A stretch of 64,000 nucleotides of DNA, from assembly GCA_963823345.1 (NCBI GenBank), contig CAWGLE010000004.1, forward strand, positions 385,166 through 449,165. Direction: 5' to 3'. A program made the translations under genes and the position numbers. The notes beneath the pieces are model-generated. The model worked only from the letters and a program-made list of their open reading frames with translations. It did not search any database and was not told the DNA's origin. This stretch comes from Candidatus Sulfomarinibacteraceae bacterium (GTDB taxonomy: Bacteria > Acidobacteriota > Thermoanaerobaculia > Thermoanaerobaculales > Sulfomarinibacteraceae). Below are positions 18,348 through 43,258 of this stretch, piece by piece; the stretch's first letter is position 1; each line of letters opens with the position of its first letter.

Positions 18348-20724
18348 ATGGTGTTCGGCGTGAGCTGGGTGAAGCGGTGCGCCCCGTGGTTGCTGCTGGT
18401 TGTGGTGTCGTCGACCGCCCATCTGTGGAGCCTCGGCGAGCGCTCGTTCCACCACGACGAGTCCATCCACGGTCACGCCGCGTACCTGCTGGTGACCAAC
18501 GGCACCTACCATTACGACCCCACCTATCACGGGCCCCTGCTCTACTACCTCGTGGCATCGACCTTCGCGATCGCCGGCGACTCGGATTTCACCGCACGGC
18601 TGCCGATCGCCCTCGCCGGTGTGGCGATCATCGCGGTGGCATGGGCATCGCGGCGAATTCTCGGAGCCCGTCCGGCGTGGTGGACCGCGCTGCTGGCCAC
18701 GATCTCGCCGATCTGGCTCTACTACGGGCGCTTCCTCCGCATGGACATTCTCGAGGCCCTGGTGGCCTCGTGCGCCTTCGTCGCCGTGTGGCGGGCGGTC
18801 CACGGGAGCCGCCGCGCCTGGGTGTGGATCGGGGTGTGGACCGGCCTCGCCTTCGCCACCAAGGAAAACGCCTTCGTCACCGCCGCCCTGGTGGGCGGGG
18901 TCGCGGTCGGGTTGCTGGTGTCGAAGGGCGTGGGACAGGCGTGGCGGCTGACGCTCGACTGGATTGTCCGCCACCGCTGGGGAATCGTCGCGTCGATCGC
19001 CGCCGCGGTGCTGGTGACGGTCCCGCTCTTCACCGTCGGCTTCCGCCACAACAGCGACTGGTTCTTCCCCTACAAGGCGATTTCCTACTGGTGGGGCCAG
19101 CACACCGTCCAGCGGGTGGCGGGGCCGCCGTGGTACCACCTGCCGCGGCTGGCGCTTTATGAGTTCCTGCCGATCATCGCCGGGCTGACCTGGGCGATCC
19201 GCCGCGGCCGCCGCATGGGGGTCCTGGAGCGGTCGCTGGCGGCCTTCGCCGTGGCCTCGGTGGCGATGTACGCCTACCTCGGCGAGAAGGTCCCGTGGCT
19301 CGGCGTGCACCAGGTGTGGGCCTTTCTGCCGCTGGCCGGGTTCCAGCTCGCGCGGACCTTCGGCCCCCACGGCGTGTGGTGGAGCCGGACCCTCGCCGCG
19401 ATCGGTCTGGCGGCGACCCTCCTCACGTCCTTCGTAGCCAACTTCGTTCTCGACGAGATCACGCCCAACCGCGATCGGGTCGAGGCGCTGATCTACGTCC
19501 AGACCTGCCCCGAACTGCTGCCGCCGGTCGCCGAGGGGTATGAGCTGGCGGCCGCCGGCGAGGATCCGGTGGCGGCGGTGGGCGGCGAGGTGGCGTGGCC
19601 CTACACCTGGTACTGGCGCGACACTCCGACCTGGTGGGCTGAGCCGGAACGCGGCATGCGGCCGCCGCTCGTCTTCTGCGACACCGAGCGCGAGCGCGAG
19701 GTCCGCCGGATTCTCGGGTCGGGCTACACCGCCGAGACGGGTGCCGCTGCGCGCGTGGTGGGTGATGGAGGACAAGAAACCGAGCCTCGGCGAGATCGTC
19801 CGCTACGTGTTCACCCGCCGTCCGTGGGGCATCATCGGCACGACCGACACGATTCTCCTGCGCGACACCGGCGAGGCGGTCACGAGCCTGCGCGAGGCGC
19901 CGGTCCCGCCCCCCCTGGCAGCGGCGCTCGGCGCCGAATCCGCCGCGGTCATCGGTGAGGACTGGTTGATGGAGCCGCGCGGTCTCTCGGTGGCGCGTGA
20001 CGGCGTGTTGGCGGTGGCCGATGCGGCGGGCGGCGATGTCGGCTTCTTCGCAGCGGATGGTACGGTGCTCGAACAGCGCATCCCGGAGGCGATGAACCAG
20101 CCCGAAAGCCTGGCCTGGACGCCGGACGGTGTGTTGGTGGTGGCCGACACCTGGAACCACCGGGTGCTGCTCTTCAACCCGGCGTCGGGCGCCGCACGGC
20201 CGCTGCCCGCGCCGGAGGACGGCTGGTACGGACCGCGTTCGGTGGCGGTGGCGCCGGACGGCACCGTGGCGGTCGCCGACACCGGCCACAAACGGGTAGC
20301 GCTGATCTCGTTCTCGGGCGGCGAACCGACGGTGGCGACGATCGGGCGCGAGGGATCGGCCCCCGGCGAGTTTGTCGAACCGGTGGGTCTGACCTGGCTT
20401 GACAATCGACGCCTCCTGGTCTGCGACACCGGCAACCACCGGTTGCAGGTGGTCGACCGGGAGGGACGCCCGCTGGCAACCGTGGCCCTGCCCGACGCCT
20501 GGGCCGACTTCTACTCGCGGCCGCAGGTGGTCGCGCTCGACGGCGAACGCTGGCTGGTGACCGACGTGCCGGCGCAGTCGTTGTGGCTGGTCGAAGATGG
20601 CAGCGTGCGCACAATCGACCTCGCGGCGGACGGCATCACCCCGGCGGGGCTCGCCTTCGCCGACGGGACCCTGTATGTGTCCGATCTCGACGGCGGCATC
20701 TGGGCGATCGGGCTTCCCCGGTGA
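18348..20724 (+). CDS. GT39/PMT_2-like (TIGR03663-like) polytopic membrane glycosyltransferase fused to NHL-repeat beta-propeller; apparent 1-nt insertion near 19739-19741
   Basis: Frame A: ...HLWSLGERSFHHDESIHGHAAYLLVTNGTYHYDPTYHGPLLYYL... with many TM segments. From about 19740 the coding signal moves to frame +1: VPLRAWWVMEDKKPSLGEIVRYVF..., then repeated ...VADTWNHRVLLF..., ...VADTGHKRVALI..., ...VCDTGNHRLQVV... (NHL). Dropping one G of ACGGGTG joins the two. Alternatively these are two genes, with the second starting at ATG 19768. Confidence 0.6.
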
Positions 20725-20756
20725 CCGGATCTCGACCGGACGGGATAAACATCGAG

Positions 20757-21458: not shown

Positions 21459-21919
21459 TGGCAGGCAGCGATACACCGTCGGCAAGGAACTCGGCCGGCT
21501 TTACCCTGATTGAGATCCTGGTGGCCCTGGTCATTCTCTCCTTTGTCGCCCTCGGCATCGCCGGTCTGTTCACCCACGCCGTCAAGACCAACGCATCGGG
21601 CCACGACTACGCCCTCCTCGCCACCGAGGCCCGGTTCGCGCTGGAGACCCTGCAGGCGCTGCCGTTCGACCACGCCGATCTCACGATGGCCGGGTCGCCC
21701 CACACGATGGCCCCGGTCAACCCCAACTTCACCATCACCTACACGATTGTCGACTACGACATCGACAACTGGCAGCAGGCCTCAGCCGGCTCGTGGACGC
21801 AGGCGGCGACGACCACCGACGCCAACGTCAAGCGGATCTCGATGACGGTGGCGTCCACCAACCAGGTCCTCGATGGACGGCGCGTCTTCACCGTCTCGAG
21901 CCTCAAGATTCCGGGGTAA
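21458..21919 (+). CDS. pilV: PilV-like minor pilin (only in cluster 1)
   Basis: TGATG overlap with the previous stop. MAGSDTPSARNSAGFTLIEILVALVILSFVALGIAGLF. Confidence 0.7.
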   Translation: MAGSDTPSARNSAGFTLIEILVALVILSFVALGIAGLFTHAVKTNASGHDYALLATEARFALETLQALPFDHADLTMAGSPHTMAPVNPNFTITYTIVDYDIDNWQQASAGSWTQAATTTDANVKRISMTVASTNQVLDGRRVFTVSSLKIPG

Positions 21920-21923
21920 GGTC

Positions 21924-22995: not shown

Positions 22996-23002
22996 GGGAG
23001 CG

Positions 23003-23537
23003 ATGATGCAACCGAACACCCTGCCGATCACAGGATGCCGCCGGAAAAGTCTCCGGCGAGCGCGGCGCGGCGCTGATTCTGGCCCTGATGGTGTCGCTGG
23101 TGCTGGTCTTTCTCGGCCTCGGCGTGCTGTTGCAGACCTCGCTCGGGCTGCAGGCCTCGGGCACCGACCGCTGGGTGACCAAGGCGCTGTACGCCGCCGA
23201 CGCCGGCGCCATGATGCAGATCAGCATGATCCAGGGGGGCGTGTTGGGCTCGACCGGCTCGTTCGTCCTGGTCGACGACCCGAACCTCGGCGGCCTGCTC
23301 AAGACCGAGTTCACCGTCACCGTCGACCGATTCTGCACCACCGAGCCCGACCAGCCGGTGCAGGGGTACGAGGCGGGCGACGAGGAAGGCTACAGCCGGC
23401 GCTTCTTCCACCTGCGCTCGCAGGCGGTGCGCAACGTCGGTGATCTCGCGGGTCTGACCCAGGCGGCGGTCGAGGCGGACGTCGCGTCCCAGCCTTTCAA
23501 GAACGATCAGTTCGTCCCTGTGGTCCAGTGCTACTGA
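23003..23537 (+). pseudogene. pilX: PilX-like protein, copy 1, with a frame change near 23036
   Basis: ATG 23003 (MMQPNTLPITG) is in a different frame from the conserved body ...[54 protein letters not shown].... There is no in-frame start for the body. Confidence 0.6.
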
Positions 23538-23557
23538 TGCGGAGCGGGAGAACAGCT

Positions 23558-25559
23558 ATGAGACACCAGCGATTGATCACTGCGGCGGCCCTGGTCGCGG
23601 CCCTCGCGACGGCCGGGTCGATGACGGCGGACGACCGCAACTTCATGACCGCGGCGGCGGCGCCGCCCAACCTGATCTTCATCCTCGACACGTCGAGCTC
23701 GATGGTGCTCAGCCCGGAGGTGACGACCGAAGGTGACCCGCCGGTCCCGGCGGCCCTCGAGGGCGCTCTCCTGTCATCGGGCAACGTACCGGGGGCGGGG
23801 GACGACCCCTACTCGCGGATGGGGATCGCGAAGAGGGTGCTCAAGGACTTCCTCGACGACGTCGGCGTGGCCAACGTGGTCCTCGCCGGCTACGCCCAGG
23901 CGGAGCCCGCCGACGGCTCCAACGGCGTGCCGCTCAAGCACTGGGTGTACGAGGCCAGGGCGCAGGACCGCTTCCACATGCTGGAGGCGAGCTACGCCTA
24001 CCGTTTCGGCTATGCCGAGAACCACGCCGGCATCCTGCTCGACAACCCGGGCGAGATCTACAGCGCAGAAGATGATCGGCTACAAGCTCTACTTCGACCC
24101 GGCGACGACCGCGGTCACCGAACGCTTCGGTTATGTCAACGCCTACGACACCGGCTACACCGAAGACGCTGCCTGACGGCTCCACGGTGCGTCTGCCCTA
24201 CGATCTGATGCCGGTCTACTTCGGCAACTGCTTCATGGACGACGGGGGCACACCGGCGGACGACACCGACGACACGCCCCGCTGCTGGGACACCACGGGC
24301 GAACCCGCCACCACCATGGTCTTCCCGTTTTACGCCTCAGGTTCCTACGACATCGTGGACGGCCACATGGTGTCGGAACGGTGGTACTACGGCGACCCGG
24401 GATCCCTGACCTTCCCCGACTGCGAACCCTCGATCACGCCCACCGCCGACAACCCCGATGACGGCTGTCTGGCGGAGTGGGAGGAAGTCTCAGGCGCCAG
24501 CATTCTCCAGCACAAGCGCCGGGTCCACCTCGAGATCCCTGAGACCGTCAACAGCCAGCCCAACCACTTCCTCGCGGTCGACTCCGGGGGCAACCGGGTC
24601 GGCAACGCGGTGGAGAGCGACACCCCCGGCAACGAGAACTACGACGGGCTCGGCGGCGCCGACGCCGACTACGACGGCGACGACTCGAACGACTGGGTGC
24701 TGTATGTCGCCTCGGTCGAACAGCGGAACTACAAGACGCTGTGCGCCGCCGTCGGGTCGTCGCTTCCTGGACGCCGACCCCGACCAAGACCGAAGAGGAG
24801 TACTGCGGCGGGTTCACGATCCCGACGTTTTCCTCCCAATTGAACGCCAGCTACCTCTATACGATGTATGCGGACGTCACCAATCAGACCGGGTACACCG
24901 CGGAGCTCGTGTCGCAGCTGGTTCGACTGGGGTCAGGGCCACGCCGCGACGGACTACGTCAACTACCAGTGTTTCGGTGGTCTGTCGGGTTTCGCAAACG
25001 CTCCGGCGAACTGCTCGAGCACGCCCGCGTCGTACATGTACTGGAATGACGACACAGGCACCTCGGGCGCCGCCGACGGCCGGTATGCGCGGCCTCTGGA
25101 CACTGCCAAGGTCTTCCCCTGCACCCCGGGCAACTGCGACCGGTTTCCAACTCGCTCACCAATAACTCCACGAGGCGGTGGCTCGGCGTGCTCAACTCGT
25201 CGGCCACGACGTCCACAACGGCATCTACCAGGTGTGCTTCGGGTTCAATCTCGTAGGCGCGGCGCCGGACGGCAGCGACTACTCTGTGTCCCGACATCTG
25301 CGCCGTGACCACCGGCGGCAGCTCCGCGACCCCGACCAACACGCCGGTCGCGACCTCGACGCCGACCCGGACACCGACCCCCGGCGGGCCGACAGTCGAC
25401 GCCGACAGCACAACGACCCCGTCGGGTGGAGGAACGGCCACCCCCACACCGACCGTCGGGTTCGCGGCGACCTCGACGCCGACGCCGAGCAAGACCCCGA
25501 CCCCGCGTCCGCCGACACCGACGCAGACGCCGAGCCGCACCGCGACCCCGGTCGGTTGA
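23558..25559 (+). pseudogene. E1: secreted MIDAS (DxSxS) protein with a Thr/Pro-rich tail, about 7 frame changes
   Basis: MRHQRLITAAALVAALATAGSMTA..., ILDTSSSMV (23687-23701), [19 protein letters not shown]. Pieces in alternating frames are colinear with E2: QKMIGYKLYFDP, LPYDLMPVYFGNCF, NPDDGCLAEW, NHFLAVDSGG, DADYDGDDSNDWVL, VHNGIYQVCFGF. Ends ...TPTPSKTPTPRPPTPTQTPSRTATPVG. Confidence 0.6.
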
Positions 25560-25577
25560 TTGGAAGAGGAGACAGCC

Positions 25578-28500
25578 ATGATGAACACTGAATTACAGCA
25601 ACAAGCGACTCTCTCGATCGTCCGGTGGGGGTTGACCCGCTCGGAGGCTTTCTGCGCCTGGGGGCCGTCGGGCTCCTGTCCTCGTCGCGGCCGGGACGGT
25701 GCAGGCGGGCGTCTTCCCGGACCAGGCGGCGTTGACCCTTCAGATCTCCGACAACATCGATGACAGACGTCACCAACCCGTACGGCGGCACCTTTCCCTC
25801 GTGTGCGACGTGCCCGTACGTCCACTGGACGGACGGAGGCTCTGTCACCACGTGCATTCAGGATGCAATATGTGGCACGACCATCACCAGCGATGCCCGG
25901 GGGGCGTGGGGAGTCAACTATTTGCAGGGAATGGCGAGCGCCACGAACTGGTCGCTATCTCATTCCCAAGATCTCCCGGCCCTCCGACCCGGGTTTGTTG
26001 CAACCCAGTGGACCAACATCCAGATCGAGTACGATTTCGAGGTCGAGCAGCTCAGCAAGGACGGCATCATCTGGGCCGCCCAGGACGCGGACAACAACGC
26101 CTCCCCCGAGGCGGGGTACCTCTTCCGGATCCGGGGGTCGTCGCCGTTCAACTCGAGCCAGGACAATCACCCCAGCGCCGAGGCCTCCACGGTCGACCCC
26201 TCCTTGTATAGCCGAAACTGTTCAGCCTGGGATCGATCTGATGCAAGATCACCGGCGAGGACACCTACCAGCTGATCGGCACCAGCTTCATCAACTCGAA
26301 CTGTCCTGAATCCTTCCAATGCCGACCACCACCTACGATGTCGCCGACACCACCGACGTCAAGACCAAGTACATGCTTCGAAAACGTCCCGTTTCGGATG
26401 CGCCTCTCCTGGTTCTGCGGCAACCTGCGGGTTCAGATCGTCCGCATCGTCCACCCGACGACCGCGACCGAGGCCACCTACAAGGGCTGCGGCGCGGCGT
26501 GCGGATCCACCGGCTTCGACGAACATCGAGGACTGCTGGTGCACCGTGGTCGAGTGGTCGCCGTTGCCGCTCGAGACACCGCTCGGGCCGGGCGCGGCCG
26601 GCCTCTGGGTGAGTTCGGGGAGTACAACCAACTACATTTCCAACAAGTACGACAACTTCAAGTTCAGCTACTGGGACCCCAACTGCGGCCTGGTGTGCGG
26701 GCCGTGGGTCGGCTGGGGCAACGCCCGCACCGACCTCATCCCGTTCAAGTTCCTCTACGAGGGCTCGCTGCTTGACATCTCGGCCGGCCGCAACTTCGAC
26801 GTCGCGGCCGACCGCGGCAAGATCGACGTCAAGACCGAGGCGCCGGCGTCGGCCTCGTCCTACAACCACTCCGCCGACTCGAACCCCTACTGCAACGGCT
26901 GGAAACTGTACGAAGACCTGCCCGACCCGACCGATACGACCGGCAACGTCGATGACATCCTGGCCTTCCTCGAACCGATGTACAGCGCGGTCGACTTCGA
27001 GAGCAATGGTGGCAGCCCCCCCGCCTTTTCGTGGGTGGATACGGCCGCAGAGGTTGTCGAAGACAACCCGCATCCCGTGGTTGCCGACGGCTCGACCCCC
27101 ATCAACTCGTCGCTGCTCCAGGCCTTCGACTGGTACGTCGACAAGAAGACCAACTCCTCGTGGTCGTCGGACGCCTTCGACTCCTGCCGCCAGTGGTACG
27201 TGATCCTCATCACCGACGGTGAGGAGGCGTGCGAGCCCGGCAACCCCAACGCCGTCTGCGACACCGGCGGGGCGGCCGAGAAGTTCGCCAACCCGAGCGT
27301 GACCGGGGTTCCCCCGCTGCCGGTCTACACCATCGGTTTTTCGCAGTCGGTGGATGCGGACTCGCCGCTCAAGTGCATCGCCGACCAGACCGGCGGCTCC
27401 TTCATGACGGCGGAGAGCCAGGAGGAGCTCAAGAACGCCCTCTACGAGGTGTTCTACGACATCGAGGACCAGGCGCGGTCGTTCGCCCCCTTCAAGGTCG
27501 CGCCGCCGCCATCGAGCGCCGGCGGCAGCGCGACCCGCGACTACCTCGCGGTCTTCCCGCTGTTCCAGCCGCTCGAAGGCAAGAGCCTGTGGGCGGGCAA
27601 CCTCTGGGCCTTCCCGCTGAACAGCGGCCAGCCCGTCCTGCCGACGATCGGCGACTGCGAGGTGGACACCACGCAGATGGTGTGGAACGCCGCCGACGCC
27701 CTCCAGGCGCAGGTCGACGCCCACAGCGAGGCCGACCCGAAGCGGTTCGTCTACATGGGCAGCGATCTCAGCGGGTCGTGGCAGCGTTATGACCTGGCGA
27801 CCATGCCCGATGACACCGACCTGCAGACCGAGTTCCGATCGAAGCTCAGCCTGCCCGCCGGAATCACCGATCTCGACGAGCAGAAGGTGATCGCGCAACA
27901 GATCGTGAACTTCCTCCGCCTGGCCTACATGGACAACGATTTCGACGGCTCGAACGCGGGCCCACCGCTCGATCCGCGTCCGGACGGCTACCCGGTGCTG
28001 GGCGAGTTCTTCCACTCGCAGCCGGTGGTCGTCAACCCGCCCAACAACCTGCAGTACTTCTACGACTGGGGGTTCGGCGCCTCGGGCGAGGTCGGGGTCC
28101 ACAACTACGGTGATTTCATCACCCGCCAGGCGAAACGGCGGCGGTTGGTGCTCGCCGGTTCGAACGACGGCATGCTGCACGCCTTCGACGGCGGGTTCTG
28201 GGACCGCGAGCGATCGACGGTCGGGGAGACCTACGACGAGATCCACGACCTCGGCAACGGCACCGAGCTCTTCGCCTGGGTGCCGCAGGCGGTGATGCCG
28301 ACCCTCTACGACATCACCTCCGGCGGGTCCCTCGATCATGCACTTACCCAAGTATCTGGTCGACGGGCCCATCACCAAGGGCGACGCCTTTATCGACCAC
28401 GACCGTGAAAGCGGCACCCCTCGCGAGTGGCGCACGCTGGCCCTGGTCTCCATGCGGCGCGGCGGCCGCGGCATCGCCGCCCTCGATATCACCCAGGCCG

Positions 28501-29714
28501 ACCCCACCAGCGGCTCCGACTACATCCCGACGGATTCGGTCTTCCCCGGCTGCCGGGTCGGCAGCACGTCCGGTTGCGACGGCGAGTTCCCCAAGGTCCT
28601 GTGGGAGCTGGCCGACACCGGCGACAGCGACTCCAACGGGAAGCCCGACCTCGGCTGGACCTGGTCCAAACCGGCGATCGCCCGGATCGCGGTGTACAAC
28701 TCCTCCGATCCGCAGCAGCCGGACGACCTCTTCGTGGCCTTCTTCGGCGGCGGCTGGGACCAGAACGAGGCCGACGAAACCGGCACCTTCCTCTACTGCG
28801 TCGACCTCGCGACCGGGACGGTGCTGTTCAGGGAAAAGGTGCTGTTCGCGGAAAACGTCCCCGTGGATGTGCCCGGCGGGGTGACCGCTCTCGACTCCGA
28901 CATCGACGGTTTCCACGACCGCATCTACTTCGCCGACTCCTACGGCGGCGTGTGGCGCCTGCAATATCCGGCGCCGACCAGCTCGAGCGCCACCGGCGCC
29001 ACCGCCGGCACGTTCACCAAGATCTTCGCCTTCAACGCCGGCTCGCCGAGCTTCCCCGACCGCCAGGAGTTCTTCACCCGTCCGGTGCCGGTGCCGGCGC
29101 GGTTCAACGGCTCGAACTACACCTGGGGTCTCGCCCTCGGCAGCGGCGATCGCGCCAATCTCGAGCGTGAGGACTCCGGCTTCGACCACTTCTACTTCCT
29201 GATCGACGCCGAGGACGGAGACACGCGCGGCATCTCGGACCTCGTCGAAATCGACTACACCGAGCTCAACGGCGGCTTCGACTGCTCGGGCCTCACCGAC
29301 CAACCGCTCGATCCCCCCAAGTACGGGTGGTACCTGAGCCTGCGGGAGAACGAAAAGGTCATGTTCGACGCCTCGGTGCTCGATGGCTACATCTTCTTCC
29401 CCACCTTCGATCCCAGCACCGCGACCGCGACCAACCCGCCGAACACCTGTGAGACGGCGAGCGGCCCCGAAACCCGGGGCGACCGGGCCGTCGAGTGCCG
29501 GGCGGCGGGCATCGGCCGCACCTACAGGTTGTGGTACGAGTGCGGCCTCGGTGAGTACACGGAGCACAATGATATTATTACGGGGCAGGAGGTTGTCGAC
29601 ATCGACGGTGAATCCTCGGTGTGGTCGGCGACCTCGGATCCGACGACCGTTCCTCACAAAGACCCGGTACTGTTGAATCGGCAGCACACGGTGACGAACT
29701 GGCGACAGGAGTGA
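25578..29714 (+). pseudogene. pilY1: F1: PilY1-like tip adhesin, copy 1, about 9 frame changes (8 within 25.6-26.55 kb, one near 28326)
   Basis: SD GAAGAGGAG precedes ATG 25578. Long intact stretches 26546-28330 and 28338-29714 contain ITDGEEAC, VYTIGFS, LGEFFHSQPVVVNPP, LAGSNDGMLHAFDGG, ALDITQADP and the DSDIDGFHD Ca-loop (28893-28919). It is colinear with F2. Confidence 0.7.
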
Positions 29715-29716
29715 AC

Positions 29717-30565
29717 ATGAGACCTGGGCTCTGGGTCCTCGGCATCACGATCGCGGCGGCCGCCCTGGCCACCGCGATGGATATCCCGATGCGCGACGGG
29801 ACGGTCGTCACGGCCGACAGCTACAAGGTCACCGGGTCGTACGTGATGATCGTCCTGGCCGACGGGTCCCAGGTGGCATTCGATGTGGCGGATGTGGACC
29901 TTGCGGCTCTGCGCGAGGCGGAGGCCGCGGCCGCCGCCGCATCCGGCGACGAGCCCGCGCCGGAAGCGGAAGCACAGTCGAGCGACACGATCTCCAGCGG
30001 ACGTTCGTTGAAGCACGCCGGCGCCGCAGCCGACGACGCGGCGGACGGGCTCGCCATCACCGATCGCGACGTCAAGCACATGCGCGGCAGCGGCGTGCGC
30101 GGCGAGGACGAGCAGCAGGAGGCCGACGCCTCGGGGACCGAAACAGGTCCCGAGGGGGACTACCAGGTGGGCGGCAGCGTGGTGCTCAACAACGTCCGGG
30201 TCGAACCGGCCGGGGAGGGCCGCTGGCAGATTCAGGGCGAGGTGGTCAACCGCAGCCCGCGGCCGGTCCTCAACGTGACCGTCAAGCTCGAGACCCTGGG
30301 CGGCGGCGAGCCGTGGAGCGGCGAGGTCCGGGCCGCCGGCGTCCTCGGACCCGACGAGAAGGCGGCCTTCACCCACAGCTTCATGGCCGAGGTGCCCGAG
30401 GGCAAGGCGCAGCCGAGCATCCGGGCGAGCGTGTTGTGGATGCAGGAGGAGTCGCGGCGCGAGCCGGACTACACCAAGGCCGGCGGGGTTCCCCACCCCA
30501 GCAACCTGCCGCTGCAGTTCGGCGGCGTCACCGGCGCCGACGTGCGGCCGACGCCCGTCCAGTAG
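29717..30565 (+). CDS. H1: hypothetical secreted protein (cluster 1 only)
   Basis: ATG lies 3 nt after the F1 stop. MRPGLWVLGITIAAAALATA signal-like N-terminus, an Ala/Glu/Asp-rich linker, and a beta-rich C-domain. Ends ...DVRPTPVQ. Confidence 0.55.
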   Translation: MRPGLWVLGITIAAAALATAMDIPMRDGTVVTADSYKVTGSYVMIVLADGSQVAFDVADVDLAALREAEAAAAAASGDEPAPEAEAQSSDTISSGRSLKHAGAAADDAADGLAITDRDVKHMRGSGVRGEDEQQEADASGTETGPEGDYQVGGSVVLNNVRVEPAGEGRWQIQGEVVNRSPRPVLNVTVKLETLGGGEPWSGEVRAAGVLGPDEKAAFTHSFMAEVPEGKAQPSIRASVLWMQEESRREPDYTKAGGVPHPSNLPLQFGGVTGADVRPTPVQ

Positions 30566-30571
30566 CGGTCG

Positions 30572-31033
30572 ATGCCGCTGAACTTCCGCAAGTCAGCGGT
30601 CGCGATCGGGCTGGTCGCGATCGTTGCGCTGGCTCTGCTGTGGCGGGCCTGCCGCTCCCGCGATGACTCTCCGCCGCCGCCTCCGACGGACTTCGCTACC
30701 GAAAAGGTGCGCCTGGTCTCTCCCGACCTCGACCTCGAGCTCCTCGAGGTGCGAGGCATCGTCAACCCCGGCTACACCGACTGGGCCTGCGTCTTTTCGT
30801 GCCGCGAAAACGGCGGGTGCCGGGCGGAGACCCGGGTACGGATTCTCTACACAACGGGGGGCGAGAAGCGCACCCTCACCCTGAGCGGCCACTTCGACGC
30901 CGACCGCGGCCAGAATATCCGCGTCGGGCGGATGCAGCGTCCGCCGGTCGCGGTGGATCGGGTCGTGGAAGTCACCGTCGAGGTGGAGGCGCCCTTCGTT
31001 CCCGGTGCGCCGCGACCCACCCCGGTGCAGTGA
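30572..31033 (+). CDS. G1: small single-pass membrane protein with a YTDWAC-x4-C-x5-C motif
   Basis: MPLNFRKSAVAIGLVAIVALALLW TM segment. ...PGYTDWACVFSCRENGGCRAE...VGRMQRPPVAVDRVVEV...GAPRPTPVQ. Paralog of G2 (39793-40257). Confidence 0.6.
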   Translation: MPLNFRKSAVAIGLVAIVALALLWRACRSRDDSPPPPPTDFATEKVRLVSPDLDLELLEVRGIVNPGYTDWACVFSCRENGGCRAETRVRILYTTGGEKRTLTLSGHFDADRGQNIRVGRMQRPPVAVDRVVEVTVEVEAPFVPGAPRPTPVQ

Positions 31034-31122: not shown

Positions 31123-31183
31123 TGTCAAAGGTTTTTGAATGACGGTGGCGACCTGTTGACGGTCCGCCCGCGGGTGCCACATG
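31123..31183 (+). promoter_or_regulatory. Candidate promoter block of pilus-tip cluster 2
   Basis: TGTCAAAGG (31123), N24, TTGACGG (31156), N14, CCACATGATAGTAC (31177). Paralogous to 20757-20816. Confidence 0.45.
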
Positions 31184-31227
31184 ATAGTACTGACCTACCG
31201 GTCGGGAACGGAGCCCATCGTGATGAG

Positions 31228-31854
31228 ATGCCGCCAACACCGTCGACAGCCGACCGCCGCCGGCGCCGGAAAGTGCAGCGGGGTTTCACCCTCAACGAGA
31301 TGATGGTGGTGGTGGCGATCGTCGGCCTCCTCGCGGTGATCGGGATGCCCAACCTCCATCGGGCGGCGATCCGGGCGGATCTCCTGGAAGAGGTGAAGGC
31401 GGTCCGCCAGGCCCTGGCGGTGGCCCGGATGAAGGCGCTCAAGAGCGGCCGCAGGGTGGCGGTTGCGCTGATCCCCGGTGCAACGGCCCAACCCGGCCAC
31501 TCGGTGGTGGCCTGGGTCGACGACGCGGCGGACAAGAGCCTCGACCCGACCGACGAGGTGGTCGGCCGGTGGAACATGGGGGTCAAGACCCTGATCGGTC
31601 CGGACGACACCGCCGAGGACTGGTCGTTGGCGAGTCTGTCGGGGTCGCAGAAGGGCGTCATCTTCCTCCCCGCCGGGAACGCCATCGCCCACGGAACGGA
31701 CATCGGCATCGGGTTCGGTTCGGTGGTGCTCTCGGATCTGAAGGGCAACCGGATCCGGTTGTTGATCGCCGCCGGCGCGGGCACGGTGCGTGAGCAGATG
31801 TGGGACCCCGACCTCGGCGTGTGGTCTGACGAGATCAGGTTCTGGAGGTACTGA
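31228..31854 (+). CDS. FimT/GspH-like minor (pseudo)pilin, copy 2
   Basis: MPPTPSTADRRRRRKVQRGFTLNEMMVVVAIVGLLAVIGMPNL.... Ends ...FWRY, like copy 1 (...LWRY). Confidence 0.75.
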   Translation: MPPTPSTADRRRRRKVQRGFTLNEMMVVVAIVGLLAVIGMPNLHRAAIRADLLEEVKAVRQALAVARMKALKSGRRVAVALIPGATAQPGHSVVAWVDDAADKSLDPTDEVVGRWNMGVKTLIGPDDTAEDWSLASLSGSQKGVIFLPAGNAIAHGTDIGIGFGSVVLSDLKGNRIRLLIAAGAGTVREQMWDPDLGVWSDEIRFWRY

Positions 31855-32945
31855 TGATCGGCATTCGATCCCTGAAATCAGGCCGCAGAGCGGGTTTCAC
31901 CCTGATCGAGGTGGTGGTGGCGATGGCCGTGTTCGCCATCTTCATGATCGGCATCCTCAACCTGCTCGACTCCTCGACCAGGATCTCGGAGATCGAGAAG
32001 GCGTTGTCCGACACCCAGGAAAACGTGCGCTTCGCCGCCTACCACATGACGCGCACCGCGCGGATGATGGGCGGCGCCGGGATGCCGTTTGCGGGCACGG
32101 TCGCCGGCGGCCCCAGCTGGATCGCCGGCGAGCTGCTGTCGAGCCAGTCCGGCAGTCTCACGACTCCCTATCCGCTCGGCGCCATCAACGTGCTGGACGG
32201 AACGGACGTCGTGACGATCCGGGGGTTCTTCGAGGTCCCGCCGTTTTTCGTCGACAAGACCGACGTCAATCTGTCGCTCGACCGGATCGAGGTCACGGAG
32301 TCCATCGGCACACATGTGATCAACAGGGATTTCGACGCCATCGATGTCAATCAACTGGAGGGCCGCGGCCTGGTGTTCATGGGCGAGTTGGACCGCAGCC
32401 AGTACGCCGTGGGCCAGCTCGGGCCGTCCTCGACCATGGACGGTACGGGTCCCGACCGGACGCTGACCCTGATGATCAGCGACGCGCCGGCCGCCTGGTG
32501 GGCGGGGCTGAATGAGACCGGCGCGGCGACCACGCCTTCGTTCGAGGTCTACCAGGTGGGCGTGCTCGACGCCTACACCTACTTCGTCGACCCCGAGTTC
32601 CGCCTGATGCGGTTGCGGGCCGACAAGTCGGCCCAGGGCGCCACGCTGCAGCCGGTGGCGGTCAACATCGGCGGTCTGCAGGTGGCGCTGGGGGTCGATG
32701 TCGACAACGACGGTCAGGTGGACGTCTGGCAGGGGGAACCTACGGAAGCCGGCGTCAGCGGCAATCGGGTGATCTCGATGCGCATCACGGTGCTCGGGCG
32801 GACGCCGGTCGAGATTCCCGGCTGGGAGGAGCCGGCGGCCACCTTTGGCGTCGGCCAGGAGGCCCAGACGGTCGACGCCGCCGGCCGCAGCGCCAAGTGG
32901 CGCCGGGTCCAGGTCGTGGCGACGCTGCGGAACTACCTGTTCTGA
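31854..32945 (+). CDS. pilW: PilW-like minor pilin, copy 2 (intact)
   Basis: TGATG overlap. ...[56 protein letters not shown]...; 363 aa. Confidence 0.8.
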
Positions 32946-32952
32946 CGGGGGG

Positions 32953-33502
32953 ATGATGATGATCGAGCCCACTTCGACCGCGCGCACCGGCAGCCGCGAC
33001 AACGAGCGCGGCGTGGCGCTGATCATGGCCCTCCTGGTGTCGGTGATTCTGGTGTTTCTCGGCATGGGGCTGTCTGTTGCAGACCTCTCTCGGGCTGCAG
33101 GCCGCGGGGACCGACCGCTGGGTGGCCAAGGCGATGTACGCGGCCGATGCCGGCGTCATGATGCAGATCCAGATGATCCAGGCCGGCGCCATCGGCTCTG
33201 CGGGCAGCTTCGTGTTCCAGGACGACCCCGATCTCGACGGTTTTCTCAAGGGCGATTACACGGTCTCCATCTCCGAATTCTGCGAGACCCGCCCGATGAC
33301 CACCGTGTGGGCCGACGACTCGGCGTGGTCCTCGGAGTTCAAGGTGCGCCACTTTCACTTTCGAAGCGATGCGGTGCGGACCATCGGCGGGCTCGGCGGC
33401 CTGAGCCGGGCGGCGGTCGCGGTGGACGTCTCGGCGTGGCCGTTCGTCGAAGACCAGCTGGTGCCGGTGACCCAGTGCCGCGGCGCCGAGTGGGGGGGCT
33501 GA
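32953..33502 (+). CDS. pilX: PilX-like protein, copy 2, apparent 1-nt insertion in a G4 run at 33066-33069
   Basis: [39 protein letters not shown], then frame +1 ...[30 protein letters not shown].... Confidence 0.7.
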
Positions 33503-33504
33503 AC

Positions 33505-35592
33505 ATGAAACGACTCCGATGCTCGACATCGCTCGCCCTGGTCGTGGCGCTCCTCGCGGCATATCCGTTGACCGCGGACGACAAGGACTTCCTGCGCAAA
33601 CGCGCGGCGGCGCCGGTGCTGGTCTTCATTCTCGACACGTCGGGCTCGATGGTCGGGTCTCCGGAAGAGCCGGGGATGATGCGCGGCTCCCGCGTCGGTT
33701 ACGGCATGGTGCCCGGCGCCGGCGATGATCCCTACTCGCGGATGGGTATCGCCAAACGGGTGCTCCGGGACTTCCTCACCAGCGCCAGTGATGCCACCTA
33801 TGCCCTGGCGGGCTACGCCCAGGAACTGCCCTCCGACGGCTCCAACGCGGTCCCGCAAAAACACTGGGTCTACGAGGCCCGCGACGGCGACCGCTTCAGA
33901 ATGGTGGAGCCCAACTACGCCTACCGCCTCGGCTACGCCGAGACCTTTGCCGGGGTCCTGCTCGACAACCCGGCCGACATCCTCAAGGGGAGGATGATCG
34001 GCTACACGCCGTACTTCGACCCCTCCGCCCCCATCCTCGACCGCTACGGCCCCACCAACGCCTGGGCCACCGGAATCGTGGAGGGCGACAGTGAGCTCGA
34101 GCTGCCCTACGATCTCCTGCCGATGTATTTCGGCACCTGTTTCGTCGACAACAAGGAGACCCCGCTCGACACCACCGACGATGTGACCGTCTGCCGCGAC
34201 GACGTCTTCCCGTTCTATGCCACGGGCCAACGCGACGTCAACGGCGACATGATGACCGACGAGTTCTACTATGGCGACCCGGCGTCCGGGAGGTTCCCGG
34301 ACTGCACGCCCAACCGGACGCCCGATGCGACGAATCCGGACGATGGATGTCTGTCGAGATGGTGGACCATCGGCAGCGGCACCTCGACCGACAACCGGCG
34401 CCGGGTGCAGGTGCGGATCCCGTCGACCGGTCCCGAGGGCAAACCGAACCACTTTCTGGCGGTCGACGATACCGGCGCCTATGTCGGCAACGAGCTCGCG
34501 GCGGACCCCGGCAACGACGAGGACTATGACCTCGACCTGACGCCCGACGCCGACTACGACGGGTCCAAGGACAACGACTGGGTGCTCTGGGTCGAGGTGG
34601 TGGAAGAACAGCGCAGCCGGACCTGCAATTACGTGATCTCCCCGACTCCGACGACGACGCCGACCGAGACCCCCACGCCCACTCCGACCATCACCGCGAC
34701 GCCCACCCAGACCCCGACGGTGACGACCACTCCGACGGTGTCGCCCACAATGACCCCGCCGCCGGTGAATTGCAGCGACATCACCCTGGAGATGCGTCCA
34801 CCGGCGAGCGGCATCCTGCAGGCCTGGATCAACAACGGCACCACCTCCCCGATCGAGATCACCCGCACGGTGGTGAGCTGGGATCCGCCGGACTCGTCCT
34901 ACTACCTGGATTGGATGGGCGTGTACTCCGGCTCCTATTCCCACAACATCGGGACCCACTATTGGGGTGACGGCCAGCCGTCCGTCGACTACGGACCGAT
35001 CACCGACGTCGACACCGAGGACCCGTCGCTGGCGCGGATCCCGGCCGGCTACAGATTCGGTTGGTACGCCGACATCGACAGCAACTTCACCCACAACGCC
35101 TTCCATGAGGTGTGTGTCGACGTCGACGTGATGAACGAGGGTCTGACCTGCAGCGGCATCTGCGACAGCTACGAGCTCATCCAGCCGCCGACGCCCACCC
35201 GGACCCCGACCCGCACCAACACGCCGTACGCCGGCACTCCGACCCGGACGCCGACAATTACTCCGACCCGGACGCCGACGATCACGCAGACCCCGTCGCA
35301 GACGCCGACCATCACGAGGACACCGACCAGGACCCTGTCCCCGACCATCACGCAGACGCCGACCATCACGAGGACACCGACCAGGACCCTGTCCCCGACC
35401 ATCACGCAGACCCCGTCGCGGACGCCGACGAGGACCGCGACACGGACCCCGTCCAACACGCCGACCCGGACGGCAACCCCGACCATCACGCAGACCCCGA
35501 CGCGGACGCCGACCAGGACTTCGACTTCGACTCCGCCCCCGGTACCCACGGCGACCAGGACACCGCTGCCGACGGCGACGGAGATCCAGTGA
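33505..35592 (+). CDS. E2: secreted MIDAS (DxSxS) protein with two Thr/Pro repeat tracts (intact, 695 aa)
   Basis: ATG lies 3 nt after the pilX-2 stop. [37 protein letters not shown] (33634-33648), [21 protein letters not shown] linker at about 34630-34770. C-terminal TP tail at about 35183-35589. Confidence 0.75.
35301..35408 (+). repeat. Two perfect tandem 54-bp copies inside the Thr/Pro-coding tail of E2
   Basis: GACGCCGACCATCACGAGGACACCGACCAGGACCCTGTCCCCGACCATCACGCA occurs at 35301-35354 and again at 35355-35408. Flanked by degenerate copies. Confidence 0.85.
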
Positions 35593-35612
35593 TGAGCCGG
35601 CAGGAGGCAGCC

Positions 35613-38600
35613 ATGAGTCGTCAGAAGCGGCCCGCCAGACACCTTCCAGCGGCGTTCGGGGCCTTCGCCTGCGGACTGCTCACCATCGTGGTGGGCGGGT
35701 CGGCCGCATGGGCGCAGAGCTTTCCCACAGCCCCGCCCGTCGAGGTGATGTTCGACGATTTCGAGACGACCACCCCGCCGCGGCCGCCGGACGACCCGCT
35801 CGACGGCAGCGGCGCGATCTGGGACGAGTGGAGCTACAGCTCGACCGATTTCGAGTACAACCCGTCGGCGGTGCCGGCGCAGATCCGTGGCGGGATCTGG
35901 GGCGTGCGGTGTCTCCAGGAGAACTCGACCCGGAGGACGGAACCACGAGGGCTACCTGGTGGTCAAACAGTCGATGCCGGGCAACCCCGGGTACGACCCG
36001 GCGGAGTGGACCAACTTCCGGCTGGACGTCGATCTGACGGTGACCCGCAACGGCATCCCGGGCATCGCCTGGGGCGTCCGCGACCCCGACAACGACGGCA
36101 TTCCCGATCAGGGGTATCTGTTCACGCTGCAGGGCTTCCCCACCGAGGGCCAGGCCGCCCGGGGCATCAGGGCGACCTGGCAGGTCAACCGCATCGACGG
36201 CGAAGGCAGCTCGACCGTGGTCGAGCAGGGGACCGTCAACCTGCCGTCACCTGACGACTACACCAGGTTCCTGGTCGACTACAAGGCCTTCCGCCTCCGC
36301 CTCGAGTGGTACTGCAACGACCTCCAGGTGCGCATCCAGCGGGTCTACAACACGTCGGTGATCCCGCAGAGGTTCTACGGGTGCGGGTGCGGAACCGAGA
36401 GCCTCGACCCCGAAGCCTGCTGGTGCACCCTCGCCGAGTGGAGTGACCCGGGCGCCAGCCTGACGCCCGGCATCACGGGTCTCTACCACAGCGGCCGGCG
36501 CAACGACCCGCCCGCTGACAGTCTGAACGAGACCATGTGGGACAACTTCAGAGTCTCGGCGTGGAACCCGGGCTGCGGTGAATCCTGCGATCCCTGGACC
36601 GTCTGGAGCACGACCTCGACCACCCAGATCCCGTTCAAGCTGTTGTACGAGGCCGGCCTGTTCGACTACTCGGCCGGGCGCAACGCCGAGGGTCGCAAGA
36701 TCGACGTCAACTCGTTTGCACCGTCCACCACGTCGGCCAACAACTCGACCACCACCAACTACTGCAACGGCTGGAACCTGTTGGTCGATCTGCCGGCGCC
36801 GCTGGCGCCGACCGAGATCGACGACATCAGGTCCTTCCTCCAGCCCATGGCCACCGCGGTGGACTATGTCGCCGACGGCGGCGGCTCGTTCAGCTGGCAG
36901 GACACCTTCGACAACGATCCTTCAAGCCCCGCCTACAACCCGGTGCCGATGATCGCCAACGGTTCGACCCCCATCAACAACTCGCTGCTCGACGCCTTCG
37001 ACTGGTACGTCGATCAGGTGACCATCGGCGACTGGGCCACCGACCCGCTCAAGGCGTGCCGCGAGTGGTACGTGGTGTTGATCACCGACGGCGCCGAGAG
37101 CTGCGCCGGACCGGGCCAGTTCGCCTGCGACCCGGGCCAGGCGGCCTCCAAGTTCGCCGATCCCGGCATCGAGGGGGTGGAGGCGGTCCCGGTCTACACG
37201 ATCGGGTTCTCGGAGTCCCTGAGCGGCAGCGCCACGGATACGGGGCCGGGTGCGCCGGAGGACCTCACGTGCATCTCCGAGCAGACCGGAGGGATCTACT
37301 ACAGCGCTCGCAATGCGGCCGAGCTCAGCCAGGCCCTCCAGGATGTGTTCTATTCGTTGCAGACCGAATCCCGCACCTTCACCCCCTTCCGGGTGTCGCC
37401 GCCGCCGTCCGCAGCCGGTCCGGACAACCAGACCCAGGACGCGCTGGTGGTGTATCCGCTCTTCAACGCCGCCAAGGAGACGTCGCTGTGGCGGGGCACC
37501 CTGTACGGTTTCCGCTTCAACGGCAGCAACGCCTCGATTCCGAACACCGGCAACTGCGAGATCGACCTCTCCCAGGTGGTGTTCGAAGAGGTGAGCCAGA
37601 GAAGCTGGGACGCCAATGCGCGGCTGGCTGAGCAGCTCGCCGCGCCCACCCCGGAACGGCACGTCTTCATGGGCAGCGATATCACGGGCAACTGGGCCAG
37701 GCACGATCTCGCGACCATCCCCACCAACGACACCCTGCGGACCGAGTTCATGGACCTGATCGGCACGACGGATCGGGTGAAGGCCCAGGAAGTGGTCAAC
37801 TTCGTGCGCGGTCTGTGGATGGACGACGATCCGACCGCCTCGCCCGACCCCAAACCCGACGCACGTCCGGACGACAGCTCGTCGCTCGGCGACATCTACC
37901 ATTCGCAGCCGGTGATCGTGAGCCCGCCCAGCCGGTCCCTGTACTTCTTCGATTACGGCTTCAGCGCCGCCGGCGACGAGGGTGCTCACGACTATGCCGA
38001 TTTCATGCGCAAACACGCCAAGCGGCGGCGGGTGGTGCTCGCCGGCGCCAACGACGGGATGTTGCACGCCTTCGACGGCGGCGTCTGGGATCGCGACCGC
38101 GCCGGAGCCGGTGAGACCTATGACCGGATCCACGATCTGGGGAACGGCTCCGAGCTCTTCGCGTACGTGCCCCAGGCGGTGATGCCGAAGCTCATGAACC
38201 TGACCTATATCGCCGACCAGCAGTGGATGGTGGACGGCCAGATCGAGGTGAGTGACGCCTTTATCGACCACGACCGCGACAGCGGCACCCCTCGCGAGTG
38301 GCGCACCGTAGCCATCACCACCATGCGGGAGGGCGGCCGCGGCCTCGTCGCCCTCGACATCACCCAACCGGACCCGATCTCGTCGTCGCCGGATTTCGAG
38401 CCCGTGATCTCCGCACTTCCGGGGTGTACCGACGGGACCACCGCCGGGTGCGACGGCGAGTATCCGAAGGTGTTGTGGGAGTTTTCCGACACCGAGGACG
38501 CCGACTCCAACTGCGCCGAGGATCTTTCGGGCGACGACTGCTGGCCGTGGTGGGACCTCGGGTGGACCTGGTCCAAACCGGTGATCGCCAGAATCGCGAT

Positions 38601-39648
38601 CTACAACCCGTCGGAGGCCAACGAGCCCGACGACCTCTTTGTCGCCTTCTTCGGCGGCGGCATCGGCGACGAGTTCGCGCCGGACAGGACGGGCCGCCAC
38701 TTCTACGGCGTCAACGTCGAGACCGGCGACGTGATCTTCAAGCACCCGATCGGCGCCCCGGTGCCGGGCGCCCCGACCGCCCTCGACACCGACGACGACG
38801 GCTTCCACGACCGGATCTACTTCGCCGACTCCGACGGCAGCGTGTGGCGCATCCAGTACCCGAAACCGAACGCAGCCGAGGCGACCGGAGCGGAAGCCGC
38901 CGAAGATGGTTCCGCGCCGGGCCAGATCGTCAGGATCTGGGACTTCCGCTCGAGCTTCGCGGACCGCCAGATGTTCTTCCACCGGCCGGTGACGGTCTCG
39001 ACGGTGGCCGAAAACGGCACGAATTACTGGGCGCTCACCCTGGGCAGCGGCAACCGCCAGAACCTCGGCGAGACATTGGACCGTGTCAGTCACTTCTTCT
39101 TCCTTCTCGATGTGGGTGACAACACGATGCGGGACGCCAGCTACCTGACCTCCGTCGACTACACCGAGCTCGACGCTTCGTTCACCTGTGCCGACGGGAG
39201 CGCCCTCGACCCCGAGAACCCCGAGGCCGAGGCGCAGAGCTTCGGCTGGTACCTGACCCTGCGGCCCAACGAAAAGGTCATGTGGGAGGCGCCGGTGATC
39301 GACGGCTACATCGAGTTCCCCACCTTCGACTCCACGGAAGGCGTGGTGGCGGTGCACAACGCCCCCAACCAGTGCGGCAGCGAGCCGCTCCCGGACGAGG
39401 GGGATGGTGAGGACGAACCGGACGTCCTGTGCGCGACCTCCGGCATCGGTCGGGTCTACAAGCTGTGGTACCAGTGCGGGATGGGGGATTACACCGAGAC
39501 CAACACCCCCGTCGTCGGGGGCGCGGTCTACACCGAAGGCAACACCACCAGGACCTACTACCCGACGATCGACCCCGACGAGGAGCCCGAAGAGCACGAG
39601 TACCAGCACCCGCCCAACCACGTGGTGACCAACTGGAGACAATTCTGA
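35613..39648 (+). CDS. pilY1: F2: PilY1-like tip adhesin, copy 2 (signal peptide, jelly-roll/lectin-like N-domain, vWA-like domain, PilC/PilY1-type beta-propeller); one apparent 1-nt insertion near 35939
   Basis: AGGAGG precedes ATG 35613 (an alternative ATG 35592 overlaps the E2 stop). MSRQKRPARHLPAAFGAFACGLLTIVVGGSAAWA. After ...CLQENSTRRT the frame shifts +1 into the 1253-aa ORF. Motifs: WYVVLITDGAES, VPVYTIGFS, LGDIYHSQPVIVSPP, LAGANDGMLHAFDGG, ALDITQPDP, DTDDDGFHD (38785-38811), IYFADSDGSVWR. Confidence 0.8.
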
Positions 39649-39697: not shown

Positions 39698-39792
39698 GTG
39701 ATCCACAGAGCAGACCGTGGAGCCGGGTCGATCCCCACTCCTGCGATGGCGCGTCGTGCGCGAGCCTCGAAAAAACTGGTAGAGTGCAATCC

Positions 39793-40257
39793 ATGTTCAG
39801 ACGTTACCGCTGGTTGCTGTTGACTGCCGTCGTCGTCCTCGGAATTGTCGCGGCGTTCGTCGTCTGGCGCGGGCGCGGGCTGGCACCGACCGCCGCTCCC
39901 GGTCTGCAGGAAACCTTCACCGTCAGCGATGTGCCCGTCGAGTCACCCGGGCTGAACATCGACGTCGGTACGGTGAAATGGACGCACCACCCGGAATACA
40001 CCGACTGGGCGTGCCTGATGCGGTGTCGCGAGAGCGAGGGCTGTCACGCCGAGATCCAGTTGGTCGTCGCGTACATCTCGGACGGCGCCGAAAAGCGCCT
40101 CACCATCGGCGGCCAGATCGACTCCGGGTTCGGCGAGACCGTGCGCATCGGCAGGGCGCAGCGCCCCGCCGTCAAGGTCGACCGGGTCGTGGGCGTCAGG
40201 GTCAAGGTTCTCGAGGCCTTTCACCGCGGCGCTCCCACCCCCACACCCATGGAGTGA
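39793..40257 (+). CDS. G2: small single-pass membrane protein with a YTDWAC-x4-C-x5-C motif
   Basis: MFRRYRWLLLTAVVVLGIVAAFVVW TM segment. ...PEYTDWACLMRCRESEGCHAE...IGRAQRPAVKVDRVVGV...GAPTPTPME. Confidence 0.6.
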   Translation: MFRRYRWLLLTAVVVLGIVAAFVVWRGRGLAPTAAPGLQETFTVSDVPVESPGLNIDVGTVKWTHHPEYTDWACLMRCRESEGCHAEIQLVVAYISDGAEKRLTIGGQIDSGFGETVRIGRAQRPAVKVDRVVGVRVKVLEAFHRGAPTPTPME

Positions 40258-42992: not shown

Positions 42993-43258
42993 TGTCATCC
43001 CGAGCGAGCGCAGCGAGCCGAGGGATCTGGGGGGTGGCTCCAGTTGGGTCCTCCCTCAAGCCACCCCCCAGACCCTGCTGGCTTCGCTCGCTCGGTCGGG
43101 ATGACAAGGGCGTGGCATGGCTTCGCTCGCTCGGTCGGGATGACAAGGGCGTGGCATGGCTTCGCTCGCTCGGTCGGGATGACAAGGGCGTGGCATGGCT
43201 TCGCTCGCTCGGTCGGGATGACAAGGACGTGGCATGGCTTCGCTCCCTCGGTCGGGAT
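42993..43258. repeat. Composite repeat: inverted partial copy, 13-bp stem hairpin, then a 39-bp tandem repeat x4.5
   Basis: The unit GCTTCGCTCGCTCGGTCGGGATGACAAGGGCGTGGCATG starts at 43081, 43120, 43159, 43198 (one substitution) and 43237 (truncated). GTCATCCCGAGCGAGCG at 42994 is the unit core in reverse orientation. Hairpin TCTGGGGGGTGGC (43026-43038) pairs with GCCACCCCCCAGA (43060-43072). Confidence 0.85.

Follow-up and report, generated by a model that had tools for sequence, protein, structure and literature searches.

A candidate two-chain PilY1 in Candidatus Sulfomarinibacteraceae with its vWA domain divided between adjacent genes

PilY1 is the key tip adhesin of type IVa pili and a surface sensor, the N-terminal von Willebrand factor A (vWA) region of which has not been crystallized (PMC11331964). 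Around one third of the PilY1 proteins studied have such a vWA domain at their N terminus (PMC13190605). Here we analyse a 64,000-nt stretch of DNA from a Candidatus Sulfomarinibacteraceae bacterium (GenBank assembly GCA_963823345.1, contig CAWGLE010000004.1, positions 385,166 to 449,165; hereafter the window) and, within it, the gene E2, which lies between a pilX-like gene and F2, a gene encoding a PilY1 propeller. We propose, with a probability of roughly 0.7, that E2 and its relatives (the E family) encode the N-terminal chain of a two-chain PilY1 that arose by fission inside an insertion of the vWA domain, and that the E and F chains reassemble at the pilus tip.

Architecture of the E2-F2 locus

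The E2 open reading frame (ORF) is intact at its full 695 amino acids (aa), and its translation contains every motif quoted in the original prediction, which had been made from the letters of the window and had described E as a secreted protein with the motif of a metal-ion-dependent adhesion site (MIDAS), intercalated as an extra component between pilX and pilY1 (Table 1). The DxSxS signature of such a site reads DTSGS in E2 (33634-33648), and NPDDGCL and NHFLAVD are also present. The first part of the vWA insertion has D-rich loops (DYDLD..DYDG) and closes with a cysteine in the sequence R-T-C374, here called a junction cysteine. The DNA of the C-terminal tail is composed of degenerate 12/18/54/84-nt tandem repeats. 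As predicted, no LPXTG or PEP-CTERM sorting motif was seen on reading the E2 sequence, nor did a sorting-signal family match it in Pfam or NCBIfam; at their very end, E homologues have a short acidic stretch (DIDD, VIND or TEIQ, for example).

E also proved, as the original prediction had it, not to be a standard annotated family. Pfam and NCBIfam searches with E2 gave no family match, the sole line being one between the Thr/Pro (TP) tract and an S-layer glycoprotein that is low-complexity noise, and a PDB sequence search with a profile of the E N-domain returned nothing even at E≤10. The PF05567 propeller family has no match in E2 and matches the neighbouring F2 at 1.6e-15. The genes upstream of E2 match the Pfam families N_methyl, GspH and PilW, although no prepilin methylation motif (GFxxxE, PF07963/TIGR02532) is present in E2 itself, which rules out E as a minor pilin.

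F2 consists, in order, of a signal peptide, an N-terminal domain of ~300 aa, the rest of the insertion, the C-terminal half of a vWA domain, which carries the sequences ANGSTP and WYVVLITDG, and the PilY1 β-propeller. At the boundary between the two genes, a TGATGA stop pair is followed by GGAGG and then by the F2 ATG, which opens a signal peptide of its own; E and F are, on these grounds, separate genes in the window.

Table 1 Features of the split pilY1 locus in the window
Feature	Coordinates	Strand	Remarks
E2, N-terminal chain of the proposed split PilY1	33505..35592	+	Intact ORF, 695 aa plus stop
Sec-type signal peptide, aa 1-24	33505..33576	+	Predicted cleavage LTA/DD, read from the sequence
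vWA N-terminal half, aa ~24-128	33574..33888	+	Strand 1 with DxSxS, helix 1, strands 2-3
First part of the clade-specific vWA insertion, aa ~129-376	33889..34632	+	β-rich, four conserved Cys
Thr/Pro linker, ~44 aa (aa ~377-420)	34633..34764	+	From sequence; predicted local distance difference test score (pLDDT) <50
Cys-flanked β-sandwich module, aa ~421-560	34765..35184	+	Fast-evolving, family-wide E C-domain; pLDDT ~85-93
(T/S/R)-P-T tail, ~135 aa (~561-695)	35185..35589	+	No recognised sorting signal; other E proteins end likewise
F2, C-terminal chain of the proposed split PilY1	35613..39648	+	One frameshift at ~35900-35940 in this assembly
Minor pilins of cassette 2	31135..33502	+	GspH/FimU-like 31135-31854; PilW 31854-32945; PilX-like ~32953-33502 (frameshifted)
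E1, paralogue of E2, cassette 1	23558..25559	+	Four or more frameshifts in this assembly
F1, PilY1 C-terminal chain of cassette 1	25760..29714	+	Frameshifted
GT-C glycosyltransferase (PMT_2) fused to an NHL β-propeller	18348..20724	+	Just 5′ of cassette 1; frameshifted at ~19730-19950

E and F resemble the two halves of an interrupted vWA domain

A search of 1.8 billion representative proteins with the E N-domain profile recovered the E family itself, and positions ~5-130 of the profile on their own also matched the extreme N termini of many proteins of 1100-1850 aa (1e-14 to 2e-7). The PilY1 propeller is present in those that were tested, in which only the second half of the Pfam VWA model finds a match, hundreds of residues further on. 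Wherever both motifs were found in a single-chain PilY1, DxSxS lies at about aa 35-70 and TDG at aa 409-830, and the vWA domain of single-chain PilY1 is therefore interrupted by an insertion of ~370-780 aa. The N-terminal block that these proteins have in common with E comprises ADDRDLLR, the DxSxS region, GDDPxSK..AK.AL, FGFATYNQD and KHWxY, whereas the second block, for which trimmed sequences were aligned with L-INS-i, aligns with F and comprises GSTPL..., CRKxYxIxLTDGxETC, VVGFG and CMAxxGG.

Reciprocal hidden Markov models (HMMs), built from 29 single-chain PilY1 proteins only, separate the two chains cleanly. The N-half HMM matched 16 of 16 E proteins (7.5e-20 to 3.7e-24; residues 24-128 of E2 at E=5.7e-23) and none of the F proteins (E at least 0.48). 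Conversely, all four F proteins were matched by the C-half HMM (7.7e-18 to 1.4e-21; residues 354-499 of the F2 ORF at E=1.4e-21), which matched no E protein (E above 1), so the MIDAS Thr/Asp (TDG) and strands 4-6 are not in the E polypeptide. The five MIDAS residues are conserved across the two chains, with D44, S46 and S48 on E and the G-x-T-P and TDG motifs on F. The profile obtained by splicing E2 and F2 matched a solved vWA structure (4rck_A, E=9.8e-4) over two colinear segments: E supplies the DxSxS strand, and F the part that runs from strand 4 to helix 6. The first 46 positions of VWA_2 matched E2 (residues 34-133) at E=0.016, with 16.2 bits against a cut-off of 27 bits.

The E plus F pair is a PilY1. 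E alone is not, because the PF05567 propeller is found only in F, and E has no complete vWA domain either. We consider it very probable that E is homologous to the PilY1 N terminus and was parted from it by gene fission. Two elements of the original prediction change accordingly: by the reciprocal HMMs and the fused relative described below, E is a detached N-terminal piece of PilY1 rather than an extra component, and its DxSxS motif, although strictly conserved, is one part of a MIDAS that is completed by Thr and Asp residues in F.

A fused relative and the origin of the split

A more distant relative, P0072, is a single-chain PilY1 of 1316 aa (GCA_964438135.1, contig CAYTJW010000050.1, locus L003) that is matched by both the N-half and the C-half HMMs. 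Its residues 23-364 align with 23-375 of E2 (38% identity, 3e-48), with residues 124-364 colinear with the insertion part of E2 (aa ~129-376), and its residues 400-1315 align with 250-1252 of F2 (37% identity, 6e-166); a Gly-rich stretch of ~35 residues sits between the E-like and F-like blocks. The protein is without the TP linkers, the β-sandwich, the second signal peptide and the F N-terminal domain. Its locus is syntenic with the cassettes of the window, including rpoA, rplQ, a β-CASP nuclease gene, a gene for a 162-aa protein, a histidine kinase gene, fimU, pilW and pilX. P0072 also disposes of a candidate that we had entertained for F, namely that FKLLYE..DYSAG is a degenerate DxSxS first strand, as the fused protein has both this segment and a true DxSxS strand.

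Other lineages generally have single-chain PilY1, and no relative is more divergent than P0072. The simplest reading would be a fission in the ancestor of a Sulfomarinibacteraceae-like clade. On that simplest reading, the fission also brought in, at the cut, the linker, β-sandwich, tail, stop, ribosome-binding site, signal peptide and F N-terminal domain.

A further difference between the split and fused loci lies upstream. The gene for a glycosyltransferase of fold class C (GT-C) of the PMT_2 family fused to an NHL β-propeller, for which tblastn gave matches at 18372-20715 in the window, precedes the split cassettes in 31 of the fetched loci as well as in the window; PMT_2 and NHL were both found by Pfam on the orthologue in locus L006. 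The fused locus L003 has no such gene, and its protein is devoid of TP tracts. GT-C protein O-glycosyltransferases act on Thr/Pro-rich regions or on pilins, examples being actinobacterial Pmt and Pseudomonas aeruginosa TfpW. This pattern, in which the PMT_2-NHL gene goes with the split loci and is missing from the fused one, suggests that its product is a candidate O-glycosyltransferase of the TP linkers and tracts. Like Pmt and TfpW, it is a PMT_2-family membrane enzyme encoded beside likely periplasmic substrates; unlike them, it carries a fused NHL propeller, and its presumed substrates are linkers of a tip adhesin and not the major pilin.

TP linkers are not confined to E. In the P0033 lineage, a TP linker of ~55 aa stands in F between the N-terminal domain and the insertion part (L045 3658-7239, L046 3783-7025), and in L022-L024 a TP stretch lies ahead of the C-x-x-W motif of F.

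Proposed reassembly of the two chains

The cysteines on either side of the cut, C374 of E and that of the C-x-x-W motif of F, are 12 residues apart in fused P0072. Both are present in ~30 E/F pairs that were read, and both are gone in the P0033/L045 lineage, in which E reads LRDAG and F reads NDGWSPF. This covariation suggests that an inter-chain disulfide may join the junction cysteines.

We envisage that an ancestral pilY1 was cut inside the insertion that follows the third vWA strand. E would have retained the signal peptide, strand 1 with DxSxS, helix 1, strands 2-3 and the first part of the insertion, and gained a TP linker, a β-sandwich and a TP tail; F would have gained a signal peptide and an N-terminal domain of ~300 aa and retained the remainder of the insertion, the second vWA half with the MIDAS Thr/Asp, and the propeller. 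Both chains would be exported by Sec, and complementation in the periplasm would rebuild a single vWA fold with a composite metal site, probably held together by a disulfide that links the terminal Cys of the E N-domain to that of the F motif C-x-x-W. Like PilY1 proteins elsewhere, F would use its propeller to dock on the minor-pilin complex of FimU, PilV, PilW and PilX. In PilY1, PilX and the minor pilins carry the propeller, and the extreme tip is formed by the N-terminal domain (PMC13190605); for this reason, the composite vWA domain, the E β-sandwich and the F N-terminal domain would be binding modules displayed at the outermost end of the type IVa pilus. That E and F physically reassemble is, from their sequences, likely. 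The fuller picture, in which a vWA/MIDAS domain on two Sec-exported chains is restored by fragment complementation with a probable disulfide staple into a composite tip adhesion site, and in which the fission point docks fast-evolving modules on glycosylated TP linkers, is one to which we would give even odds.

AlphaFold2 (AF2) was run on E2 residues 1-570 and modelled residues 211-375 with pLDDT values of ~52-87 (means of 10-residue blocks). Foldseek with this model returned matches for the C-domain only, which were generic β-sandwich or CBM3-like folds and weak (E 1e-3 to 1e-2, target-normalised template-modelling score 0.3-0.43).

Several points weigh against the proposal. The AF2 model of E2 alone is of low confidence over residues 1-210, with the N-half of the vWA domain modelled as strand-helix-strand at low confidence; this would be compatible with a missing partner and also with a shallow alignment. 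AF2 of fused P0072 (residues 1-760, mixed alignment) reached a mean pLDDT of 55, and Foldseek with that model ranks vWA proteins first at non-significant values (E at least 0.057). The Pfam VWA matches on E and F are both under the curated thresholds. The MIDAS of P0072 is degenerate (DTSTA, VTGSEE), and therefore metal binding may not be essential in this lineage. P0072 is, furthermore, the one fused orthologue found, which leaves room for a secondary fusion, and the covariation of the cysteines and the PMT_2 association each come down to essentially one evolutionary contrast.

The strongest rival account takes E to be an independent secreted or surface adhesin of PilY1 N-terminal descent that works alone, for example in soluble form or in the matrix with its function residing in the β-sandwich and TP tail, and F to be a PilY1 with the F N-terminal domain as the tip module. 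E brings a signal peptide of its own and additional modules (PA14 among them in certain variants), the new F N-terminal domain could replace the function of the vWA domain, and AF2 shows no confident fold joining E and F, all of which would suit such an adhesin. Yet E holds just the first strand-helix-strand of the vWA domain and F the remainder, and neither would be expected to be stable alone; the MIDAS residues are conserved on both chains; E and F are adjacent in every locus, 0-15 nt apart in the clean assemblies that were read; and the junction cysteines co-vary. A lone adhesin is thus unlikely, and we favour an E chain that pairs with F.

Distribution and conservation of the E family

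A word-indexed search returned 56 E homologues, all of them unnamed and from metagenome-assembled genomes (MAGs) of Thermoanaerobaculales, Holophagae or Ca. Sulfomarinibacteraceae. Among GTDB species representatives, 36 E loci were found, 35 of which are from Thermoanaerobaculales/Holophagae/Ca. Sulfomarinibacteraceae taxa, the last being a weak 49-residue match in a Woeseiaceae MAG. In all loci that were examined, E is flanked by pilX and pilY1. Among the loci found, the family is thus confined to minor-pilin/pilY1 loci of pili, with E followed by PilY1 wherever the downstream DNA suffices, and the possibility raised at the outset that E homologues lie mostly outside pilus loci is not borne out.

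The usual E protein consists of a signal peptide, an N-domain of ~375 aa, a TP linker, a β-sandwich and a TP tail; in certain variants, a PA14 domain or another β-sandwich copy is present as well. Twelve diverse E proteins, 46-62% identical overall, have 66 invariant columns in the N-domain, including the GDDPYSRMG motif and the MIDAS residues D44, S46 and S48. The C-terminal region evolves fastest, in agreement with the original view that the distal part is the variable one. That view also held that the C-terminal domain of E1 differs from that of E2, which turns out to be wrong, because an iterative profile seeded with the E2 C-domain recovers the same domain, as one family, in 44 E proteins, one of which is P0013, a close homologue of E1 (65-76% identity over the aligned segments); the E1 and E2 C-domains are divergent homologues. 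A word-indexed homologue search with the E2 C-domain had returned nothing where local searches find dozens, a discrepancy that we attribute to the limitation of the word index.

The sequence ADD(R/K)D(F/L)L(R) stands right after the predicted cleavage site both in E (residues 24-31 of E2, 33574-33597) and in diverse single-chain PilY1 proteins (P0095-P0190). Its conservation points to a possible functional role of the mature N terminus, a role of which we found no description.

If E were a functionless, decaying remnant of the fission, kept by polarity or by translational coupling with pilY1, the heavy frameshifting of E1 in the window and the fast evolution of the C-terminal parts of E would be accounted for. 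We regard this as highly improbable, since the N-domain is strongly conserved, many MAGs have intact E ORFs, and the frameshifts of the window also hit obviously essential genes and so look technical.

The split in related assemblies

The same order, from the E N-domain across ~1-1.3 kb to the F N-domain, the F vWA half and the propeller, was found in every locus with enough downstream DNA. In contigs with k141 names, which are MEGAHIT-style and short-read, the boundary reads stop, GGAGG or GGGGG, ATG and signal peptide, with E of 619-653 aa, a spacer of 10-15 nt and an intact F of 1301-1334 aa. Homologue searches with the F region returned 15 proteins only, mostly fragmentary.

Frameshifts in the window are numerous. 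They fall at 23558-29714 (E1, with frame changes at ~24062, ~24165 and 25110-25290 according to tblastn with P0013, P0034 and P0024, and F1), 32953-33100 (pilX of cassette 2), 35900-35940 (F2) and 19730-19950 (the PMT_2 gene); P0052 is the first fragment of E1. The orthologues of these genes are intact in short-read contigs, and many of the closest MAGs have MFD isolate names and 'contig_N' names, which we take to mark long-read assemblies. On both counts, the frameshifts are probably indel errors of assembly and not signs of pseudogenes.

That the E/F split is itself an artefact of sequencing or assembly, or a pseudogene of what is really a single pilY1, might be suspected from these frameshifts and from the presumed long-read origin of many related MAGs, but is scarcely credible, because the boundary is no frameshift but two stops, a Shine-Dalgarno sequence, an ATG and a new signal peptide, because ~2 kb of additional coding sequence lies between the two homologous blocks, and because intact E and F occur in the same layout in k141-named contigs from other samples. 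The original prediction had named an artificially split ORF as a possible refutation; the split is genuine today, and what stands of that idea is that E and F were ancestrally one gene.

Tandem cassettes and neighbouring genes

The cassette of minor pilins, E and F is tandemly duplicated in the window (20583-30565 and 31135-39648). At least six related MAGs also have two cassettes, with ~10 kb from one E gene to the other (locus pairs L008/L018, L009/L021, L010/L039, L012/L019, L014/L016 and L026/L038). Cassette 2 of the window is without a separate pilV ORF and without the ~280-aa gene found after F1. The latter (29621-30565) encodes a protein that has no family match; proteins of this kind, of ~265-340 aa, are encoded directly after F in cassette 1 and in the majority of related loci (L005 9424-10269 and L006 15796-16593, for example), with no equivalent after F2 of the window.

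One gene for a protein of ~155 aa follows each PilY1 gene (30572-31033 and 39784-40257). These paralogous proteins have an N-terminal hydrophobic segment and a Cys-rich motif, DW(A/T/S)CL..CRE..GC.A, match no Pfam family and are kept 3′ of pilY1 in many related loci; they are possibly an accessory factor of PilY1. After the pilus locus, a fused double M16 peptidase of 875 aa is encoded at 40321-42948, a position that is occupied in relatives by two separate genes (L002, L005) or by a fused one (L006). Just 3′ of the M16 gene, at 43079-43258, lies a near-perfect tandem array of 4.6 copies of the 39-nt unit TGGCTTCGCTCGCTCGGTCGGGATGACAAGGGCGTGGCA (98% identity).

Discussion

E and F together occupy the same position, after fimU-pilV-pilW-pilX, as the vWA-type PilY1/PilC proteins (P. 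aeruginosa PilY1, Legionella pneumophila PilY1 and Myxococcus xanthus PilY1.3), and are like them in the PF05567 propeller of F, the interrupted vWA layout and the E N terminus with ADDRDLL, DxSxS, GDDP.SK..AK and KHWxY. In contrast to those proteins, there are two polypeptides here, each with a signal peptide; the break lies inside the insertion, so that the MIDAS is on two chains, and modules have been added at the break, namely TP linkers, a β-sandwich or PA14, and the F N-terminal domain.

The nearest conceptual precedent among type IV filaments is the origin of TadB and TadC, the platform proteins of Tad pili, which came from a two-domain ancestor by gene fission (PMC10191384). Both cases concern a component of a type IV filament system; in TadB/TadC, however, two complete, repeated domains were parted, whereas here the cut runs through one domain. 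Streptococcus sanguinis PilB likewise places a vWA/MIDAS adhesion module on a type IV pilus, and the DxSxS strand of its structure (7b7p) gave a weak match to the spliced E+F profile, but its vWA domain is intact and fused to a pilin, whereas E has no prepilin motif. Our literature search found no report of a split PilY1, nor of a vWA domain with its metal site shared between two gene products; the E/F pair would thus be the first apparent case of a vWA metal site divided in this way.

The case is made by sequence inference in uncultured organisms and is of interest to specialists in type IV pili and vWA domains. A natural two-chain version marks where the vWA insertion can open, yields two smaller proteins that could be expressed separately, and identifies the insertion as a site where evolution adds new binding modules. 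The name PilY1 N-terminal chain can be given to proteins that are at present annotated as 'hypothetical' or 'VWA domain-containing'. The association with PMT_2-NHL suggests that it is the pilus tip, rather than the major pilin, that is glycosylated. For Ca. Sulfomarinibacteraceae and Thermoanaerobaculia, in which the system was found, surface attachment may matter.

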